From a virus (taxonomy: Duplodnaviria > Heunggongvirae > Uroviricota > Caudoviricetes), in IMG/VR virus record IMGVR_UViG_2529293239_000010: a stretch of DNA of 49,854 nt. One strand, written 5' to 3'. Both the position numbers and the translations under genes were made by a program. Shown here piece after piece: positions 1 to 47,835 of the stretch. The notes under the pieces were generated by a model. The model saw only the letters and a program-made list of their open reading frames with translations, searched no databases and was not told the DNA's origin. The first letter of the stretch is position 1, and each line of letters starts with the position of its first letter.

Positions 1-1131
1 TCAAATGACCAGTTTTTTCCATTCCTTACCGCGTGCGTCGTTGTAAATATCGGTCATTTTTTGATTCGAATGGCCTAGCAAAATTTTGGTATCAACCCCC
101 TGCTCTCTGAACAATCGCTCTGATAAAGATCTCTGCTCATGGAAAGAGGGAGGGGTGCCATTAGCACGCCAGTTGTAATCCACAGAATCCCGGGCTTTTT
201 TAAATGCAACGGTTAATGTTGCTGGCTTAACCATCCCGCCGCGCTTAGCTGTCCCTTTCGCGTGATGGTGGTGCAATAGCCACGGACTAAGAACGCAATC
301 GCGGCAGGATGACACCACATCATCCAGGGTGAGATTTAATTTATCGCAACGCAGAGCCAGAGGGATGGCAATCCGGGTTCCTGTTTTTTGCTGTTCGACA
401 TGAAGATAACCATCCCGGATATCCGAAAATTGCATTTTGCAAATATCTGAAAGGCGCTGGCCTGTCATCAGTGCCAGCAGCATACCGCGCTGTAAAAAGT
501 AACCATCCTTTTCCGCTGCGTTATAAATCATCATCCACTCATCAAAAGTCAGTCGCTGTCTTGATATCCGCACCTGCGGTTTTTTTGCCGATTCTGCAGG
601 GTTAAAGCCTGGCGGGACATCGCCCGTTTGCTGAGCTTCCCGGAAAACATCGATCAGTACTTTCCTGAAAATTTGTCCCATTCTGTTATGTCCTCTGGCC
701 TTGTACTCTTCCAGTACTGATACCACATCTTTTACGGTTATGGCATCTAACCGTCTGGTGCCAAAACGTTCATCAAATACCCTGAGAGGGGCCGCTTTCT
801 GTTTCAGCGTGTTGAGTTTGATCTCGCCGTTTTCATATCTTTCCTGTTGAATTTTTCTGTAATTATTCAGAAAAATGGTAACAGTTGATGAACCGCCGGT
901 ATCACTAATAATTTTCTCCTGCAGACTGAGCATTTGTTCCATTTGCTGCCGGGCAAGACGGCTGTTCGCTTCTGCTGCAATAGTTTCTGCCAGTTTCTGG
1001 TCAATACTGCCGAGACCGTGATTTTTGCCTGTTATGGGATGCCTGTAACGCCAGTAAACTTTGTTATTTCTTTTGTCAAAATACGGAGATAATCCCGGAA
1101 CATCGGTTTTATATTTTCGCGGGCGCGCCAT
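1..1131 (-). CDS. int: Phage integrase, tyrosine recombinase family
   Basis: 376-aa ORF with integrase-like N-terminus and C-terminal catalytic region (R...HxxR...Y context near LGHSNQKMTDIY); sits at the prophage edge next to an excisionase, as in lambdoid prophages. Its stop codon lies at window positions 1..3. Confidence 0.85.
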   Translation of the reverse strand: MARPRKYKTDVPGLSPYFDKRNNKVYWRYRHPITGKNHGLGSIDQKLAETIAAEANSRLARQQMEQMLSLQEKIISDTGGSSTVTIFLNNYRKIQQERYENGEIKLNTLKQKAAPLRVFDERFGTRRLDAITVKDVVSVLEEYKARGHNRMGQIFRKVLIDVFREAQQTGDVPPGFNPAESAKKPQVRISRQRLTFDEWMMIYNAAEKDGYFLQRGMLLALMTGQRLSDICKMQFSDIRDGYLHVEQQKTGTRIAIPLALRCDKLNLTLDDVVSSCRDCVLSPWLLHHHHAKGTAKRGGMVKPATLTVAFKKARDSVDYNWRANGTPPSFHEQRSLSERLFREQGVDTKILLGHSNQKMTDIYNDARGKEWKKLVI

Positions 1132-1357
1132 CTTCCAGTATCCTCTTCAAAGCAGGGTGATCTGTGGCGATCACCTCCGGCTTGTTTACCATTCCGACAA
1201 AGCGAGCTTGCGGATCCACTCGCCAGCGTCTTCCAACTTTTTTGGGGAGAGGAAATATCATTCCGGCTTTAGCGTATTTACTTAACGTACTCGGAGTAGG
1301 GACCGGTTCACTGAATTCCTCTTTTGCCCACTCAGTGAGCAGAATAAGTCTTGCCAT
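1109..1357 (-). CDS. xis: Excisionase-like small DNA-binding protein
   Basis: 82-aa ORF directly upstream of and overlapping int on the same strand; N-terminal LxLxEWAKEEF...TL.KYAKAG motif typical of lambdoid Xis proteins. Confidence 0.65.
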   Translation of the reverse strand: MARLILLTEWAKEEFSEPVPTPSTLSKYAKAGMIFPLPKKVGRRWRVDPQARFVGMVNKPEVIATDHPALKRILEDGAPAKI

Positions 1358-1421: not shown

Positions 1422-3893
1422 TTAAAAATCAGCCTGATTCGGGATCAGTTTTTGCCAGATAACTGAAATGTATTTTGCCTGGTAACGGGCGTCATCAAGT
1501 GCATTATGGCGCTCACCTTCGAATGGAATAGCCGTTCTGGCATCGAAGTCTATGGCTTTCCCCAGCTCAACGATTGTGCGTACATCGCGATCGTTGTAGT
1601 AACGCCACGGGCAGGGGATCCCCTGCCGTTCGTATGAACGGCGCAAAATCGTGTTGTCGAAGTTGGCTCCATTTCCCCAGACCTGAACAAAAAATTCACC
1701 GGAGTTTTCGTCGATAAATTCCCGCAATTGTAACAGTGCATCATCTAACGGGATTTCATCGGTCATAATGGCAGACTGCGCTTCACGTGATTGCTTCAGC
1801 CACCTTTTAATGACGTCACGATCAATGACTCCGCCAGCAGTTTCCAGATCGATAGTCTTACTAAATTCCGGTCCCATATCTCCGGTTTGCGGATCGAAAA
1901 ATATTGCACCTATTGAGATAATCGGGGCATCAGGATTTTTTCCCATGGTTTCAAGGTCGATCATTAGATGGTCACACGTCCTGCTGGTGGATGTGATAAC
2001 GTGATGACCGTTCATCGCAATTAAGGGATCTGCCGTCTCGCCAGTTTCACTATCGCTGGCGTGATCCTGAGCGCTACCAGCATTCTCCTTGTGTGGATGT
2101 TCAGCGCCTTCCATTTCCTTCGGATCATTTTCCTGAACTTCAACCTGATTCTCTTCATCGAATGTTTCCTGGTATGTTGCGTCACCCATCACCGCGCCAC
2201 AATCAGGGCAGTTGCCGCCACCGCTTTGACCGCAGGCGGTGCAGACTTTTTCCGGTTCCTGTTGCGCTACTGGCTCAGGTTGTTTCGTTTCTGGCTCGTT
2301 TTGTTGCGTATTTGGGCTGTTTTGTTCCGCTTTCTGGTCGTTCTGTTCCGATTCTTGCTGGTTCTGGTTTACAGAATCGCGGGTTTCAATCCCCTTTACC
2401 CATTTCGGATCATTCGGGTCGCTAATCCCTGCAACAAATTCTCCGCGAGAGGCAGCAAGCAACTTATCGGCGTCAGGCTGGCTGATATTGGCTGCCTGCA
2501 TAATTTTGTTTACTTCGTCAGCGGTAACTTTTACCGGCTCTGGTTGTGCGGTCGTGTCAGATGCACCAGTATTTTGTTGTGAACCTGAGTACGTGCCGTT
2601 TTTACGTGCGAAGTATTCCTCTTTTGTGATTTCCGTAGCTCCCAAGGCTAGTGCTTTTTCCAGACCAGAAAGTTTGTTTGCGCGACCGTATTTTTCGCCA
2701 TCCTTGTCGGTGAAGAGGAAGTAGAACGGCCCCTCACGCTCTACAGATGGTTCGACTTCCACTTTGCATTCGGTTTTTTCGTTGCCCGGAATTGCCGTTT
2801 CCACTGCATCAGTTTCTGGTACTGGCGACGAGAGAGTATCAGTTGCGCTCTGATTTCTTCCTTCATCTTCAAACACGCCCTTTGTAGTCAGGTATTCAGT
2901 AATGTATTTGTTCAGTGCCACAGGGTCTTTGTGAATGTCGATCGGACGTTCACGGACAAGGCCAAAAATAGTCTGGCGGTCGTAGCGAAGGGCATCAGGC
3001 TGTTTGCGCATTGATGCCGAGATACGCTTCCAGTCTTCGCGGTCGTTGTCGATAACTTCATTTTTTGCCCAGCGATGGATGCTGCCGTCAATGTTTCCGG
3101 CATCCACATCACCAGGCCAGAGAGCGTAGGCCAGTTCGTCATCCAGTGTTTTCCATGTCTGCTTGTATTCGCGATGAATGGCAGCAATGACCGGGCTGAT
3201 TTTTCCTGTTGAATTTTCACTGTGCTGTTGATTGGTTCTGGCGCGGGCGAGATCAACAACAGACGTGTATTTTCCGGTTTCCTTGCGTTCACCTTCGCGA
3301 CGTTTTTTCCAGATGCGCATCTCTGCCTGAATTTCGGGCCATTTGGCACCAGGCTTACATTTATGCTTAACCCACCCGATGGCATGCAGCTTAAGCTCCG
3401 GATACATGGCGTTAACTTCTGGCATTTTCATCAACGCTTCAACGATATGTCCGTCGAATGTTGCCATGTCTTCCTGCAACAATTCCTGTGCGCTAATAAC
3501 CATATCAACGGTGATGTTTTCACATGTGTCGAACTTAACCATGACAGCGTTCTGTACTTCAGGGGCCAGCTTGTCAAAAGTGACGTTCATCGGATCTGAT
3601 TCAGTCTCAACCGGGACAAAGGAAGCAGACTCCTCATCCCAGCGGTTTTCCTGCATATATTCAGCATCCCAGGAATCGAGGGCAGGGCGGGGTATACCGG
3701 GTTTATCCTCGCAGACAAGAAATTTATAAGCGCAGTCCTGAGCAGCCGGATAATGTTCCAGGAATTGCCAGTGAAATTTTGCGCGGGCGCGACGTTCATC
3801 ACCGGCTTCAATGGCAGTGGCTACAGCGACGGCACCTTCTTCCTTTATTGCCTGTTCGTCCGGAATGGCGGCGCAAATAAAGACTTTACTCAT
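1422..3893 (-). CDS. Phage exonuclease, 823 aa, with C-terminal DEDDh (DnaQ-like) 3'-5' exonuclease domain and central CxxC...CxxC zinc ribbon
   Basis: C-terminal motifs DLETMG ... WGNGANFD ... HNALDDA fit the DEDDh exonuclease fold; CTACGQ...CPDCG zinc ribbon; Q/E/N-rich low-complexity linker encoded by imperfect tandem DNA repeats around 2240..2360. Confidence 0.8.
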   Translation of the reverse strand: MSKVFICAAIPDEQAIKEEGAVAVATAIEAGDERRARAKFHWQFLEHYPAAQDCAYKFLVCEDKPGIPRPALDSWDAEYMQENRWDEESASFVPVETESDPMNVTFDKLAPEVQNAVMVKFDTCENITVDMVISAQELLQEDMATFDGHIVEALMKMPEVNAMYPELKLHAIGWVKHKCKPGAKWPEIQAEMRIWKKRREGERKETGKYTSVVDLARARTNQQHSENSTGKISPVIAAIHREYKQTWKTLDDELAYALWPGDVDAGNIDGSIHRWAKNEVIDNDREDWKRISASMRKQPDALRYDRQTIFGLVRERPIDIHKDPVALNKYITEYLTTKGVFEDEGRNQSATDTLSSPVPETDAVETAIPGNEKTECKVEVEPSVEREGPFYFLFTDKDGEKYGRANKLSGLEKALALGATEITKEEYFARKNGTYSGSQQNTGASDTTAQPEPVKVTADEVNKIMQAANISQPDADKLLAASRGEFVAGISDPNDPKWVKGIETRDSVNQNQQESEQNDQKAEQNSPNTQQNEPETKQPEPVAQQEPEKVCTACGQSGGGNCPDCGAVMGDATYQETFDEENQVEVQENDPKEMEGAEHPHKENAGSAQDHASDSETGETADPLIAMNGHHVITSTSRTCDHLMIDLETMGKNPDAPIISIGAIFFDPQTGDMGPEFSKTIDLETAGGVIDRDVIKRWLKQSREAQSAIMTDEIPLDDALLQLREFIDENSGEFFVQVWGNGANFDNTILRRSYERQGIPCPWRYYNDRDVRTIVELGKAIDFDARTAIPFEGERHNALDDARYQAKYISVIWQKLIPNQADF

Positions 3894-3985
3894 TTTGTTT
3901 TACCTCATTACAGATTTAAGGGTGAACAAATCCCTGCCATTGCTGGCATATAAGAATGAAACCGGATATTTATTACGGAACTGTT

Positions 3986-4177
3986 TTAAAGACCTGCCGG
4001 GATTTCGTTATTATCCTGGTGAATAACTTTATCGACCGGGTAACAGTTACCGGGAATTTTCTGTTCGGTTGCTGCAGTCACACACTCCTGCATTGTCCTG
4101 TGAACACTGACTGCAATATCAACTGGCTCTCCGGAAACAAGAAAAACTGTCAGAACAAGTGCAAATGCTGTATTCAT
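3986..4177 (-). CDS. Small hydrophobic, signal-peptide-like protein of unknown function (about 63 aa)
   Basis: ORF with hydrophobic N-terminus (MNTAFALVLTVFLVSG); its ATG overlaps the stop of the upstream gene in an ATGA arrangement, suggesting translational coupling; AAGGA Shine-Dalgarno about 8 nt upstream. Confidence 0.35.
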   Translation of the reverse strand: MNTAFALVLTVFLVSGEPVDIAVSVHRTMQECVTAATEQKIPGNCYPVDKVIHQDNNEIPAGL

Positions 4178-4467
4178 TGCCAGCATCCTTTTTGTATCGG
4201 ACGTAAACGGGCCAGCATTGAAAGAATGCATATTTTATTTAATAGCTCCCGTTCGTGTTTTCTCTTGTTAATGGCATCTTCAGTAAATACAGGGTTACTG
4301 ATAGTGACACCAATTTCAAAACAACCTTCAGACGTATTAATGTTTGGTAATAACGTTTCCATTATCGCGTCCTCAACAATGAATTTTGTGATGCGGTGCC
4401 TGGTGCCTCCAGGTGACGTTAACCAGTTAACAATTAACGCCGGATACAGAGAATCCACCCATAACAC
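4174..4467 (-). CDS. Hypothetical protein in leftward early operon
   Basis: 97-aa ORF on the same strand as the early leftward genes; stop overlaps the start of the downstream small ORF. No recognisable motifs. Confidence 0.4.
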   Translation of the reverse strand: MLWVDSLYPALIVNWLTSPGGTRHRITKFIVEDAIMETLLPNINTSEGCFEIGVTISNPVFTEDAINKRKHERELLNKICILSMLARLRPIQKGCWQ

Positions 4468-4923
4468 TGTTTTTGGTTTTAACTGTTCCGCGTGCGCTCA
4501 GCCGCATTCACCACATCACAAAATTCACTTTAAAAAGGGCGGCAGAGCAGTCACGGAGTAAAACTGATACCGCCAAACGTCACCAGAAAATTGATAACAG
4601 AGGGCGTTGCAGCGGGGTTGTCACTTAAGCGTATGGTCAACCTGACAACTCGGTGTCCTCAACGGGGAAGGAATAACCCCGCCATACTTACCGCCGCGCC
4701 ATTTCGCGGATTGCCACAACCGGAAACGCACGGTCGACGAAAATTTAACGACAGGCTATCTATGAACCAGCTACCTCGCCGGGCGCTTTCGCGTTATGGT
4801 CTGACTTTTCAGGGAAATATCCTTTCAGTAAACTGTCAGTGCCGGATGCTCACCCGTGTCCGGCGCACGCACTCCACCTCACCCGTGGAGAACTCCTTAA
4901 TCACCAACCCTCAGGAGGGTGAA

Positions 4924-5199
4924 ATGTCGACTGAAAATGATGAAATCATTAACTCCCTGATACGCCAGATTAATAATTTTGATAAAGCATTGCAACATGC
5001 TGCGGCGCGTAGTGATATAACTCTTTTAGCAATTTCATTTCTTGCATCTGTTATGGATAAAAATGAAGTCGTACGACAGAGTCTTGTTGATTATATCGAC
5101 TCGCTTCAACCCGGCACTTTCAATCATGAGAGCTTCAATCATGAGAAAGAGCATGTTAAGTCTGTAATTAATTCTCTTATTTTGAATCAAAAGAATTAA
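4924..5199 (+). CDS. Hypothetical protein (about 91 aa) in AT-rich segment
   Basis: ATG at 4924 preceded by strong Shine-Dalgarno GGAGGGTGAA; the longer 202-aa ORF call upstream has no ribosome binding site. Convergent with, and overlapping, the 3' end of the minus-strand gene 5177..5509. Confidence 0.35.
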   Translation: MSTENDEIINSLIRQINNFDKALQHAAARSDITLLAISFLASVMDKNEVVRQSLVDYIDSLQPGTFNHESFNHEKEHVKSVINSLILNQKN

Positions 5200-5509
5200 T
5201 GCTTTTTGTTGCAAAGTAATTTTCAAGGGGTTCTATTCGAATCCCTTTCTTTTTCATTAACAAGCCAAACCCCTTATCAATGATGTCCATTAGATCCAGG
5301 AAGTATTTTTCATGTAAATCCTGGTTATCAGAGAGCTGCTTCTCTTCGTACAGCCCGATAAAGGCTCGGCGTACGTTACCGGATATATTGTCGATGGTTT
5401 CTTTTTCTACGGTACTCAGGTCAAGAGTCGCCAGTTGAGAGCGAACCACATTCGATGCCATTTCCTGGAATGGTACTGGTAAATCTTTAAATTCCATCGT
5501 CAACCTCAT
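5177..5509 (-). CDS. Hypothetical protein, second gene of PL-proximal operon
   Basis: 110-aa ORF whose start overlaps the stop of the upstream gene (5509); AT-rich; no recognisable family. Confidence 0.45.
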   Translation of the reverse strand: MRLTMEFKDLPVPFQEMASNVVRSQLATLDLSTVEKETIDNISGNVRRAFIGLYEEKQLSDNQDLHEKYFLDLMDIIDKGFGLLMKKKGIRIEPLENYFATKSINSFDSK

Positions 5510-5742
5510 CAGTCAGTGTTTCTGGTTAACCAGCGACGCGCGCCAGCTTCAGTTTTAAACGTTTTGCTTCTGGTATACGTCATCGCGGTGAACGTACCGT
5601 CCTGGTTGGGGAACACGCCACATACCAGAGATTCGCTGTTGCCAAGCTCGATAGTATCCATGCTGACCTCATTTCCCCTTAACGCCGGGGTAGCGGAACA
5701 AAAACCTGCTGCATAGTTATTAAAGTTGAACCCTGCCGTCAT
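5509..5742 (-). CDS. Hypothetical protein, first gene downstream of PL
   Basis: 77-aa ORF about 100 bp downstream of a strong leftward promoter; occupies the position of N in lambda but has no arginine-rich N-terminus. Confidence 0.45.
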   Translation of the reverse strand: MTAGFNFNNYAAGFCSATPALRGNEVSMDTIELGNSESLVCGVFPNQDGTFTAMTYTRSKTFKTEAGARRWLTRNTD

Positions 5743-5841: not shown

Positions 5842-5870
5842 AACTATAGGAAATGCCTAATTACTTGTCA
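5842..5870 (-). promoter_or_regulatory. PL-like leftward early promoter with overlapping operator
   Basis: On the minus strand, TTGACA - 17 bp - TATAGT; overlaps the palindromic operator AATAGGCTATGCCTAAT (5869..5885) and further CCTAAT half-sites. Confidence 0.55.
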
Positions 5871-5979: not shown

Positions 5980-6456
5980 TTAAGTTCCTGTCTTGGTGAT
6001 GTTCTGGCTTTTCCGTTTTGATTCTTGATTTTTCAGATAGTTAGCTACCTTCATTTCCATTGCGGCAATGTAGGCGCGAACGTCATAATCAACCCAACTA
6101 GGCTCCGTAGCATTTCCAGATAAGATGAAAGCCACAATTGCTTTTTTTTCATCAGAGGCGGCTTGATAAAGGCTGTTTATGTCTAAAAGTTCACTTTTTG
6201 TATCTGAAGTGGATGGGGTTGGTATGGGGTATTCGTTAAGCCCCCAATGCTCTGGACCAACCACATCAGAAAAGAAACGCCATAGTTCTGGAAGTTTGTC
6301 TTTACTTATCGAACCTTTCTTAATCCAGTCATGGATTGATGGTGGTTGGACTTTGAAATGACGTGCGATTTCCGCCTTTGATTTGACGGCTCCTGATGCA
6401 ATTTTTTTGTTAATGGCCTGCTCTATCGCTCGGCCTAAGTCTTTACCACTAAGCAT
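5980..6456 (-). CDS. Prophage repressor, RacR-like (HTH, no S24 peptidase domain)
   Basis: 158-aa ORF divergent from a cro-like gene and flanked on both sides by copies of the same palindromic operator; HTH-like segment KSKAEIARHFKVQPPSIHDWIKKG. Confidence 0.75.
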   Translation of the reverse strand: MLSGKDLGRAIEQAINKKIASGAVKSKAEIARHFKVQPPSIHDWIKKGSISKDKLPELWRFFSDVVGPEHWGLNEYPIPTPSTSDTKSELLDINSLYQAASDEKKAIVAFILSGNATEPSWVDYDVRAYIAAMEMKVANYLKNQESKRKSQNITKTGT

Positions 6457-6508
6457 TGCTTAATAGTCTCCTATGCGCATCGCGTTAGGCAATCCCTACT
6501 CTCGATGT

Positions 6509-6553
6509 ATTAGGCATAGCCTATTGACAATTTCATTAGGCTAAGCCTAATAT
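6509..6553 (+). promoter_or_regulatory. OR operators with PR-like rightward promoter
   Basis: TTGACA (6525..6530) - 17 bp - TAATAT (6548..6553); operator palindromes ATTAGGCATAGCCTATT (6509..6525) and ATTAGGCTAAGCCTAAT (6535..6551) overlap -35 and -10; a third partial site lies near 6483..6499. Confidence 0.6.
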
Positions 6554-21405: not shown

Positions 21406-21732
21406 ATGACTAAAAATACTCGTTTTTCCCCCGAAGTCCGTCAGAGGGCGATTCGTATGGTTCTGGAAAGTCAGGGCGAATATGACTCACAGTGGGCGGC
21501 AATTTGTTCCATTGCCCCAAAGATTGGCTGTACACCGGAGACTCTGCGTGTCTGGGTACGCCAGCATGAGCGGGATACCGGAGGCGGTGATGGCGGGCTC
21601 ACCACCGCTGAACGTCAGCGTCTGAAAGAGCTGGAACGTGAAAATCGTGAACTGCGCCGCAGTAACGATATCCTTCGCCAGGCTTCCGCTTATTTTGCGA
21701 AGGCGGAGTTCGACCGCCTCTGGAAAAAGTGA
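21406..21732 (+). CDS. IS629 transposase OrfA (HTH)
   Basis: 108-aa [24 protein letters not shown]... with leucine-zipper-like C-terminus, typical IS3-family OrfA. Confidence 0.85.
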
Positions 21733-22619
21733 TGCCACTGCTGGATAAGCTGCGTAAGCTGTACGGGGTCGGACCGGTATGCAGTGAACTACATATTGCC
21801 CCGTCAACGTATTACCACTGTCAGCAACAGCGACATCATCCTGATAAACGCAGTGCCCGTGCGCAGCGCGATGACTGGCTGAAGAAAGAGATACTGCGCG
21901 TATACGATGGGAATCATCAGGTATACGGTGTGCGTAAAGTCTGGCGTCAGTTGTTACGGGAAGGTATCAGAGTGGCCAGATGCACTGTGGCACGTCTCAT
22001 GGCGGTTATGGGACTTGCCGGTGTTCTCCGGGGTAAAAAGGTCCGTACGACCATCAGCCGGAAAGCCGTTGCCGCAGGCGACCGCGTAAACCGTCAGTTC
22101 GTGGCAGAACGACCTGACCAGCTGTGGGTGGCTGATTTTACTTACGTCAGCACATGGCAGGGCTTCGTCTATGTGGCGTTCATTATTGATGTGTTTGCCG
22201 GATACATCGTGGGGTGGCGGGTCTCATCGTCCATGGAAACGACATTCGTGCTGGATGCTCTGGAGCAGGCGTTATGGGCCCGTCGACCGTCCGGCACGGT
22301 CCATCACAGTGATAAAGGTTCTCAGTATGTATCGCTGGCCTACACACAGCGGCTTAAGGAAGCCGGATTACTGGCATCAACAGGAAGTACAGGCGACTCG
22401 TATGACAACGCGATGGCGGAGAGCATCAATGGTCTTTACAAAGCGGAGGTAATACACCGTAAGAGCTGGAAAAACCGTGCAGAAGTGGAACTGGCCACAC
22501 TCACGTGGGTGGACTGGTATAATAATCGACGATTGCTGGAAAGGCTGGGCCACATCCCTCCGGCAGAAGCAGAAAAAGCTTATTATGCTTCCATCGGAAA
22601 CGATGATCTGGCAGCCTGA
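21729..22619 (+). CDS. IS629 transposase OrfB (DDE catalytic domain), normally made as an OrfAB fusion by -1 frameshift
   Basis: 296-aa ORF overlapping orfA in the -1 frame; DDE integrase-core region (WVADFTYV..., HSDKGSQY..., [10 protein letters not shown]). Confidence 0.85.
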
Positions 22620-47251: not shown

Positions 47252-47835
47252 TGGCATTCAGAATGAGTGAACAACCACGGACCATAAAAATTTATAATCT
47301 GCTGGCCGGAACTAATGAATTTATTGGTGAAGGTGATGCATATATTCCGCCTCATACAGGTCTGCCAGCAAACAGTACCGATATTGCACCGCCAGATATT
47401 CCGGCAGGCTTCGTGGCTGTTTTCAACAGTGATGAGGCATCGTGGCATCTCGTTGAAGACCATCGGGGTAAAACGGTTTATGACGTAGCGTCAGGGGACG
47501 CGTTATTTATTTCTGAACTCGGTCCGTTACCGGAAAATGTTACCTGGTTATCGCCGGAAGGGGAGTTTCAGAAGTGGAACGGCACAGCCTGGGTGAAAGA
47601 TGCAGAAGCAGAAAAACTGTTCCGGATCCGGGAGGCGGAAGAAACAAAAAACAGCCTGATGCAGGTAGCCAGTGAGCATATTGCGCCACTTCAGGATGCT
47701 GTAGATCTGGAAATCGCAACGGAGGAAGAAACCTCATTGCTGGAAGCCTGGAAAAAATATCGGGTGTTGCTGAACCGTGTTGATACATCAACTGCACCTG
47801 ATATTGAGTGGCCTACGAACCCTGTCAGGGAGTAA
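47251..47835 (+). CDS. tfa: Tail fibre assembly protein Tfa
   Basis: 194 aa starting [54 protein letters not shown], lambda Tfa. Confidence 0.9.

Follow-up and report, generated by a model that had tools for sequence, protein, structure and literature searches.

A probable dicBF-type early-left operon and its mosaic accessory slot in a lambdoid prophage

The dicBF operon of the Qin prophage (ydfABC-dicF-dicB-ydfD) is a well-studied locus of Escherichia coli K-12. Published functions exist for DicF, which is a small RNA (sRNA), and for the proteins DicB and YdfD. The 53-nucleotide (nt) DicF is made by RNase E and has its 3' end at a Rho-independent terminator (PMC5069750, PMC9438474, PMC10448788); an RNase III cut gives a 190-nt DicF precursor (PMC10448788), and an RNase III site in the dicF-dicB spacer gives an alternative 72-nt DicF (PMC5069750). 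DicB blocks division and the phage receptor ManYZ (PMC6832061), and YdfD is a lysis protein (PMC8835842). The Rac prophage of K-12 has the order racR, ydaG, ydaF (DUF1391), sieB, the KilS sRNA, kilR and, further on, recE; sieB is convergent and overlaps ydaF at its end. The present analysis concerns positions 3986 to 5742 of a 49,854-nt stretch of viral DNA (IMG/VR record IMGVR_UViG_2529293239_000010), the whole of which is referred to as the window. This region very probably represents the early-left operon, of dicBF type, of a lambdoid prophage that resembles Rac and Qin and is inserted at ompW; in this operon an AT-rich patch is a mosaic accessory cassette replacing ydfB-ydfC. Most of the region is thus the already known dicBF operon with DicF, DicB, YdfD and YdfA. 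The only uncharacterised part is the AT-rich cassette formed by a plus-strand gene (gene A) and a minus-strand gene (gene B), one of the forms that a mosaic accessory slot takes.

Identity of the operon and comparison with Qin and Rac

The alignment of the window with K-12 Qin revealed 97.1% nucleotide identity for positions 4909..3902, a stretch that follows directly on ydfC and reaches beyond ydfD. The gene order in the K-12 annotation agrees with that of the window. The operon layout and the processing scheme given in the literature also fit the arrangement found here (PMC5069750, PMC9438474, PMC10448788). A locus of E. coli MS 145-7 (L002, NZ_CP146655.1) is 99.7% identical and adjoins ompW. 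The RefSeq annotation of that locus contains an integrase, an excisionase, an exonuclease, a DUF1482 protein, dicB, two hypothetical proteins, a DUF1391 protein and racR. This gene order and the neighbouring ompW lead to the reading of the region as an early-left operon whose lambdoid prophage is inserted at ompW. The features are summarized in Table 1.

The proteins of the operon were assigned using profile searches and comparison with K-12. DicB matched Pfam PF05358 over its full length (4.9e-37, 125.9 bits against a cut-off of 27) and NCBIfam NF049927 (1.2e-38, 130.7 bits against a cut-off of 100), and 54 of its 62 residues are common with K-12 DicB. YdfD belongs to PF07358 (3.7e-25, 88 bits against a cut-off of 25) and has 59 of 63 residues in common with its K-12 counterpart. 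The 50-residue form of YdfA is a member of PF07151 (8.8e-27, 93 bits for a cut-off of 27.3) and agrees with K-12 YdfA at 42 of 50 residues; RefSeq labels it as a DUF1391 family protein. The dicB and ydfD genes overlap by ATGA at 4174..4177 and are therefore translationally coupled, while the N-terminus of YdfD is hydrophobic with the hydropathy maximum at residue 1. This is in accordance with the initial annotation, in which the last two genes were described as coupled and one of them as having a signal-peptide-like N-terminus.

The two small minus-strand genes that had been proposed downstream of the leftward promoter (5509..5742 and 5177..5509) both exist as open reading frames (ORFs), but their starts were wrong. 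The start of the first gene, ydfA, was corrected because in the short form DUF1391 extends over residues 2-48 and the K-12 protein has 51 amino acids (aa); that of gene B was corrected to 5497 because all 47 family representatives and RefSeq start there. Similarly, dicB starts at 4362 and not with the 97-aa GTG ORF extending to 4467. The genes had been called unrecognisable and candidates for novelty, which does not hold for the four of the seven elements (ydfA, DicF, dicB and ydfD) that fall into named families; novelty stands for the AT-rich convergent A/B pair and not for the remainder of the operon. The expectation that the leftward early operon is a site of host-division and exclusion functions was right in spirit.

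The PL-like promoter was the sole strong promoter-like site revealed by consensus and weighted scans, and its region is 84% identical to the racR-ydaG intergenic region of Rac. Two exact GCCTAATWA repeats, at 5855 and 5880, flank it, and three near-copies are clustered at 6507..6553 on the far side of the RacR-type repressor gene. As judged from their sequence and placement, these clusters would fit an arrangement of left and right operators.

Compared with Qin, the promoter, ydfA, the long untranslated region, DicF, dicB and ydfD are present in the same order. The window differs from Qin in carrying gene B and the convergent gene A in place of ydfB and ydfC, a RacR-type repressor instead of DicA, and an intact 823-aa exonuclease (a pseudogene, ydfE, in K-12), xis and int. 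The exonuclease appears to be the intact form of this pseudogene. Its counterparts in related loci encode YdfE_N, YdfE_C and Rv2179c-like exonuclease domains.

The window shares its layout with Rac, including a RacR repressor, a DUF1391 gene and a convergent gene that overlaps the preceding one at its 3' end. Gene A corresponds in place to sieB, DicF to KilS, DicB to KilR, which inhibits FtsZ, and the 823-aa exonuclease to RecE. Identities of 80-86% were obtained for the promoter region, for the DUF1391 gene and for the spacer between sRNA and inhibitor. Rac has KilS and KilR, whereas the window has DicF and DicB. The SieB of Rac is a membrane superinfection-exclusion protein, whereas the product of gene A is predicted to be small, soluble and helical and shows no similarity to it. 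No SieB match was found for gene A in Pfam or PHROG, and no transmembrane segment was detected, so that the likeness is one of position and orientation only. The most hydrophobic 15-residue window of gene A scores 1.75 and has charged flanks, because of which a full transmembrane segment is not assigned.

Table 1. Features of the operon and its surroundings, in window positions
Feature	Position	Strand	Remarks
Integrase	1..1131	minus	window start
Excisionase			near integrase
Exonuclease, 823 aa	1422..3893	minus	
ydfD (DUF1482), lysis protein, 63 aa	3986..4177	minus	PF07358; function per PMC8835842
dicB, cell-division inhibitor, 62 aa	4174..4362	minus	PF05358, NF049927, K-12 identity
dicF-dicB spacer	4363..4536	minus	fold, -66 kcal/mol
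DicF sRNA	4537..4588	minus	Rfam RF00039; terminator U-run reaches about 4532
dicBF mRNA structured leader, 5' of DicF	4589..4923	minus	335 nt; fold and conservation
Gene A, 91 aa	4924..5199	plus	near-orphan, predicted four-helix; convergent
Gene B, 106 aa	5177..5497	minus	hypothetical, all-helical; N-terminus MEFKDLP
Terminator-like hairpin	5225..5257	plus	9 bp, -11.6 kcal/mol, then UCUUUUUCA; 26 nt past gene A stop
ydfA (DUF1391), 50 aa	5509..5661	minus	first gene after PL-like promoter
PL-like (dicBp-equivalent) promoter	5871->5843	minus	TTGACA-17-TATAGT; 11/12 consensus match
RacR-type repressor	5980..6456	minus	NCBIfam RacR 4.2e-73
cro-like gene, ydaT-like gene, replication genes			rightward of the operon, as is the RacR-type repressor

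DicF and its structured leader

The region between gene A and dicB was analysed for non-coding RNA. The DicF family (RF00039) was matched over the full model (1-52) at 76.7 bits (E = 2.8e-15), its gathering score being 48, and 58 of 58 bases, including the hairpin and the U-run, are identical to K-12 dicF. The DicF hairpin folds at -15.9 kcal/mol. As in K-12, DicF sits in a long untranslated region between the promoter-proximal small genes and dicB, within a repressor-controlled prophage operon (cf. PMC5069750). The suggestion that this gap may hold an sRNA or a terminator was therefore correct, as both DicF and its intrinsic terminator were found there by Rfam and by the identity to K-12 dicF. 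Besides DicF, no Rfam family reached its threshold in the gap. The RefSeq feature table of the MS 145-7 locus lists dicB and the DUF proteins and no dicF non-coding RNA; K-12 has one.

The gap had been described as an ORF-free stretch of about 450 bp (4468..4923). It is indeed without credible genes, but the non-coding stretch is actually 4363..4923 (561 nt), because dicB begins at 4362 and not at 4467, and mechanical ORFs are present in it. These are 4473..4628 on the plus strand and 4621..4731 on the minus strand, and the frame of gene A is also open upstream to 4591; none of them is credible.

The minus-strand RNA of this stretch folds at -207 kcal/mol with a z score of -3.84 against shuffled sequences. 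The leader 5' of DicF matches by position the region that RNase III and RNase E process in K-12 (PMC5069750, PMC10448788). Its core, from 4589 to about 4750, is nearly invariant, and its distal part is a mosaic (116 distinct leader sequences) with breakpoints at 4809, 4858, 4869, 4887, 4909 and 4926. If it ends at the terminator, a 190-nt DicF precursor would have its start near 4725, within a long hairpin predicted by the fold.

In the dicF-dicB spacer, about 28 pairs interrupted by one mismatch form a closing helix around smaller hairpins, the longest unbroken run being about 20 bp. A match to STnc100 (RF02076) at 4330..4539 on the minus strand reached 39.8 bits, which is below the gathering score of 47, and the likeness of the spacer to STnc100 is one of helix architecture only. 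Between this spacer and that of kilS-kilR in Rac the identity is 80%. Together with the fold and the likeness to STnc100, this suggests that both prophage types, Qin-like and Rac, may carry a common structured module before the division-inhibitor gene.

The AT-rich cassette and its convergent slot

The AT-rich patch noticed earlier was confirmed, with a GC content of 0.32-0.39 over about 4900..5350 against 0.50-0.56 on either side. Alignments to phage Tritos and to K-12, which carry ydfB and ydfC at this place, set the limits of the swap at about 4909 and 5510. One metagenomic contig (L010) has the order ydfA-ydfB-ydfC-B-A; the A/B module can therefore also be an addition and not only a replacement.

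Gene B matched phrog_6937 (6e-67), and all its PHROG matches are of no assigned function; Pfam, NCBIfam and PADLOC gave no match. An exhaustive profile search of 1.84 billion representatives returned 47 clusters only, showing a small enterobacterial prophage family with a conserved N-terminus of about 55 residues, unrelated C-termini and total lengths of about 31 to 208 residues. No recognisable or informative domain was found in the longer C-termini among the 47 cluster representatives. Among 5426 complete E. coli genomes, 1357 carry DNA of the N-terminal module, O157:H7 being one of these. The 106/109-aa and 124-aa B proteins have residues 1 to about 98 in common and differ only where they overlap the convergent gene.

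The initial annotation had reported gene A as a plus-strand ORF with an excellent ribosome binding site (RBS) that overlaps the minus-strand gene, and both points were confirmed. AGGAGG is present at 4913..4918, 5 bases before the ATG, and the overlap with gene B covers 23 nt (5177..5199). From its sequence, gene A is probably real. The ratio of nonsynonymous to synonymous substitution rates (dN/dS) was 0.28 in frame and 0.44-1.6 in the five other frames, as calculated from one variant of 79% protein identity with 44 differences. The PHROG search gave a weak match to phrog_18692, a 92-aa type. The comparison of gene A with this type gave a Smith-Waterman z of 8.5, the score being reached by 0 of 2000 shuffles, and hhalign aligned the two at 31% identity over 78 columns; they are collinear and of near-equal length (91 and 92 aa). 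Codons 66-75 of gene A (5119..5148) consist of a tandem 15-nt repeat encoding FNHES-FNHEK, whose number varies among homologs with one, two or three copies.

The terminator-like hairpin downstream of gene A would, by its sequence, act as the terminator of this gene, and it falls within the coding sequence of gene B. Such a hairpin past the convergent ORF is clear only in the 91-aa cassette type and unconvincing in the others, which is one of several points weighing against the account of the cassette given here. PADLOC gave no significant match. No convincing sigma-70 promoter of gene A was revealed by consensus and weighted scans, the best candidate being TTTTCA-17-TAAACT at 4806..4834. Among 54 copies of the 92-aa relative, 7 are frameshifted into ORFs of 27 and 64 aa (L007-L009, about 3560..3640 on the minus strand of those loci), which suggests that the 92-aa convergent gene is dispensable in some lineages. 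The model of gene A has a predicted local distance difference test (pLDDT) score of 69; the models of A and B are of moderate confidence, and fold searches with them returned generic helical bundles.

The last three points also favour an alternative in which gene A is a chance ORF antisense to the untranslated region of the operon and the AT-rich patch is a divergent 3' part of gene B. In agreement with this alternative, gene A is a near-orphan. Its 15 homologs are all from E. coli, 198 of the 5426 complete E. coli genomes carry it, tblastn against 50,697 phage genome records gave no match, and no function was matched in Pfam, NCBIfam or PADLOC. The consensus AGGAGG with its 5-nt spacing is, however, conserved across cassette types, the dN/dS is lowest in the annotated frame, and the relative of about 31% identity has retained both the ORF and its length. 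In other prophages unrelated intact ORFs, each with its own PHROG family, occupy the same slot. A chance ORF is therefore considered unlikely. Remote homology and structure prediction had been recommended for each small protein. Profile searches assigned the operon genes; for A and B they gave no function, and the structure models gave generic helical folds, with no catalytic fold in either. A literature search with RefSeq protein accessions returned nothing.

The scan of viral contigs for the junction CCCTCAGGAGGGTGAAATG gave at least 120 loci. In the loci analysed, the junction CCCTCAGGAGGGTGA(A)ATG stands before ORFs of at least four types, namely 91 aa (paired with the 106/109-aa B), 73 aa (phrog_7249, paired with the 124-aa B), 92 aa (phrog_18692, paired with the 133-aa B) and 77 aa (phrog_10348, paired with a 135-aa B in an O157:H7 prophage, where the Shine-Dalgarno sequence is the same). 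Other dicF loci carry, behind different junctions, a convergent 68-aa ORF (phrog_4987) or a membrane ORF with three transmembrane segments. In one locus (L134) the slot has a 106-aa ORF with three hydrophobic segments, located at 988..1308 of the extracted upstream segment (operon orientation, minus strand). It is convergent to, and lies within, an apparently spurious 205-aa extension of ydfB, and it had no Pfam or PHROG match. To our knowledge, a fixed Shine-Dalgarno/ATG junction before unrelated ORFs has not been described for the dicBF operon.

The pairing of A and B was considered as a possible cognate module of the toxin-antitoxin, abortive-infection or toxin-immunity kind, in which the variable A would neutralise or partner the part of B that varies, its C-terminus. 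The genes converge, with 3' ends overlapping by 23, 11 or 41 nt in three cassette types, their cassette is AT-rich and mosaic, and the conserved N-terminus and variable C-terminus of B resemble those of polymorphic toxins. On the other hand, B is found without a convergent partner in 12 loci (L157 type), and one B core, residues 1 to about 98, is paired with the unrelated 91-aa and 73-aa ORFs; A and B are therefore not an obligate pair. The search for toxin-antitoxin or defence systems gave no significant match in PADLOC, where BrxA scored best (E = 0.014, 12.7 bits), and nothing in Pfam or NCBIfam; neither protein shows a catalytic fold. A cognate module is accordingly judged very improbable, and toxin-antitoxin or toxin-immunity was rejected as the leading reading since B occurs alone and with unrelated ORFs.

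The 130 nt before the start of gene A are highly conserved among junction-bearing loci, even beside diverged sequence. This conservation, the convergent geometry and a weak promoter-like TTAACA-16-GAGAAT at 4427..4454, which would read antisense through dicF, could point to a further regulatory RNA in the gap, for example a plus-strand mRNA of gene A that also serves as an antisense damper of leaky dicF and dicB. The conservation is, however, explained by the minus-strand leader, which is also kept in loci without gene A and from whose conservation it is inseparable. No additional promoters were found in the K-12 operon, for which the sense strand was examined (PMC10448788), and no further Rfam family reached its threshold. 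There is accordingly little likelihood of such an RNA.

The accessory cassette resembles the morons and accessory hotspots of phages. Like them, it is an AT-rich insert with its own RBS and terminator-like hairpin, it is oriented opposite to the operon, and its content is variable between near-identical flanks. It differs from them in that the promoter scans for gene A gave weak candidates only and that one fixed Shine-Dalgarno/ATG junction precedes unrelated ORFs. Tentatively, and with considerable doubt, the distal end of the dicF leader may carry a fixed 'landing pad', in which a conserved 5' stretch ends in AGGAGGGTGA(A)ATG (antisense). Such a pad would drive the resident small ORF, and in dicBF- and Rac-type prophages it would be a so far undescribed hotspot of genes that the lysogen expresses for exclusion, defence or counter-defence. 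This idea is put forward because at least four ORF types use the junction and because the sieB of Rac is in an equivalent convergent position. Convergent transcription from the landing pad might damp leaky read-through into the toxic dicF, dicB and ydfD.

Other window features, proposed expression and significance

Several further RNA matches were obtained with Rfam on the plus strand of the window. Three tRNA genes (15884..16130) are closely followed by two full STnc100 copies (16209..16399 and 16677..16886; 136 and 165 bits), in what is presumed to be the late region of the prophage. As suggested by a match to the sok antitoxin RNA (11188..11363, 120.5 bits), the prophage may contain a type I toxin-antitoxin locus of the hok/sok kind. 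The ALIL pseudoknot (21687..21803, 116 bits), which we take to be a translational frameshift element of insertion sequences, and the IS009 RNA (47594..47792, 227 bits) suggest elements related to insertion sequences in the window.

By extension of the K-12 work, the RacR-type repressor would free the PL-like promoter for a single leftward transcript comprising ydfA, gene B, the antisense of gene A, the 335-nt leader, DicF, the spacer, dicB and ydfD, and probably running on into the exonuclease, xis and int. RNase III would cleave the leader and RNase E would trim the product to the 53-nt DicF, whose hairpin and U-run would end part of the transcription. DicF with Hfq would then repress ftsZ, manX and other mRNAs; DicB with MinC would stop division and inhibit ManYZ, leading to phage exclusion; and YdfD would lead to lysis. 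Gene B would be read from PL, while gene A would occupy the convergent slot behind the fixed Shine-Dalgarno/ATG junction. Because of the positional parallel with the sieB of Rac, we infer that gene A may be an accessory ('moron') gene that the lysogen expresses separately, with its own RBS and a one-way terminator, and by the same analogy its role would most plausibly be exclusion or another interaction with host or phage.

The main result of the analysis is a correction, by which a region taken as unrecognisable is found to be a textbook operon and its gap to be DicF with its processing leader. The residual leads are modest, namely the gene B family, present in about one quarter of complete E. 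coli genomes, and the variable convergent slot. Should the ORFs of this slot turn out to be genes for exclusion or defence, further ones could be sought in this compact place.

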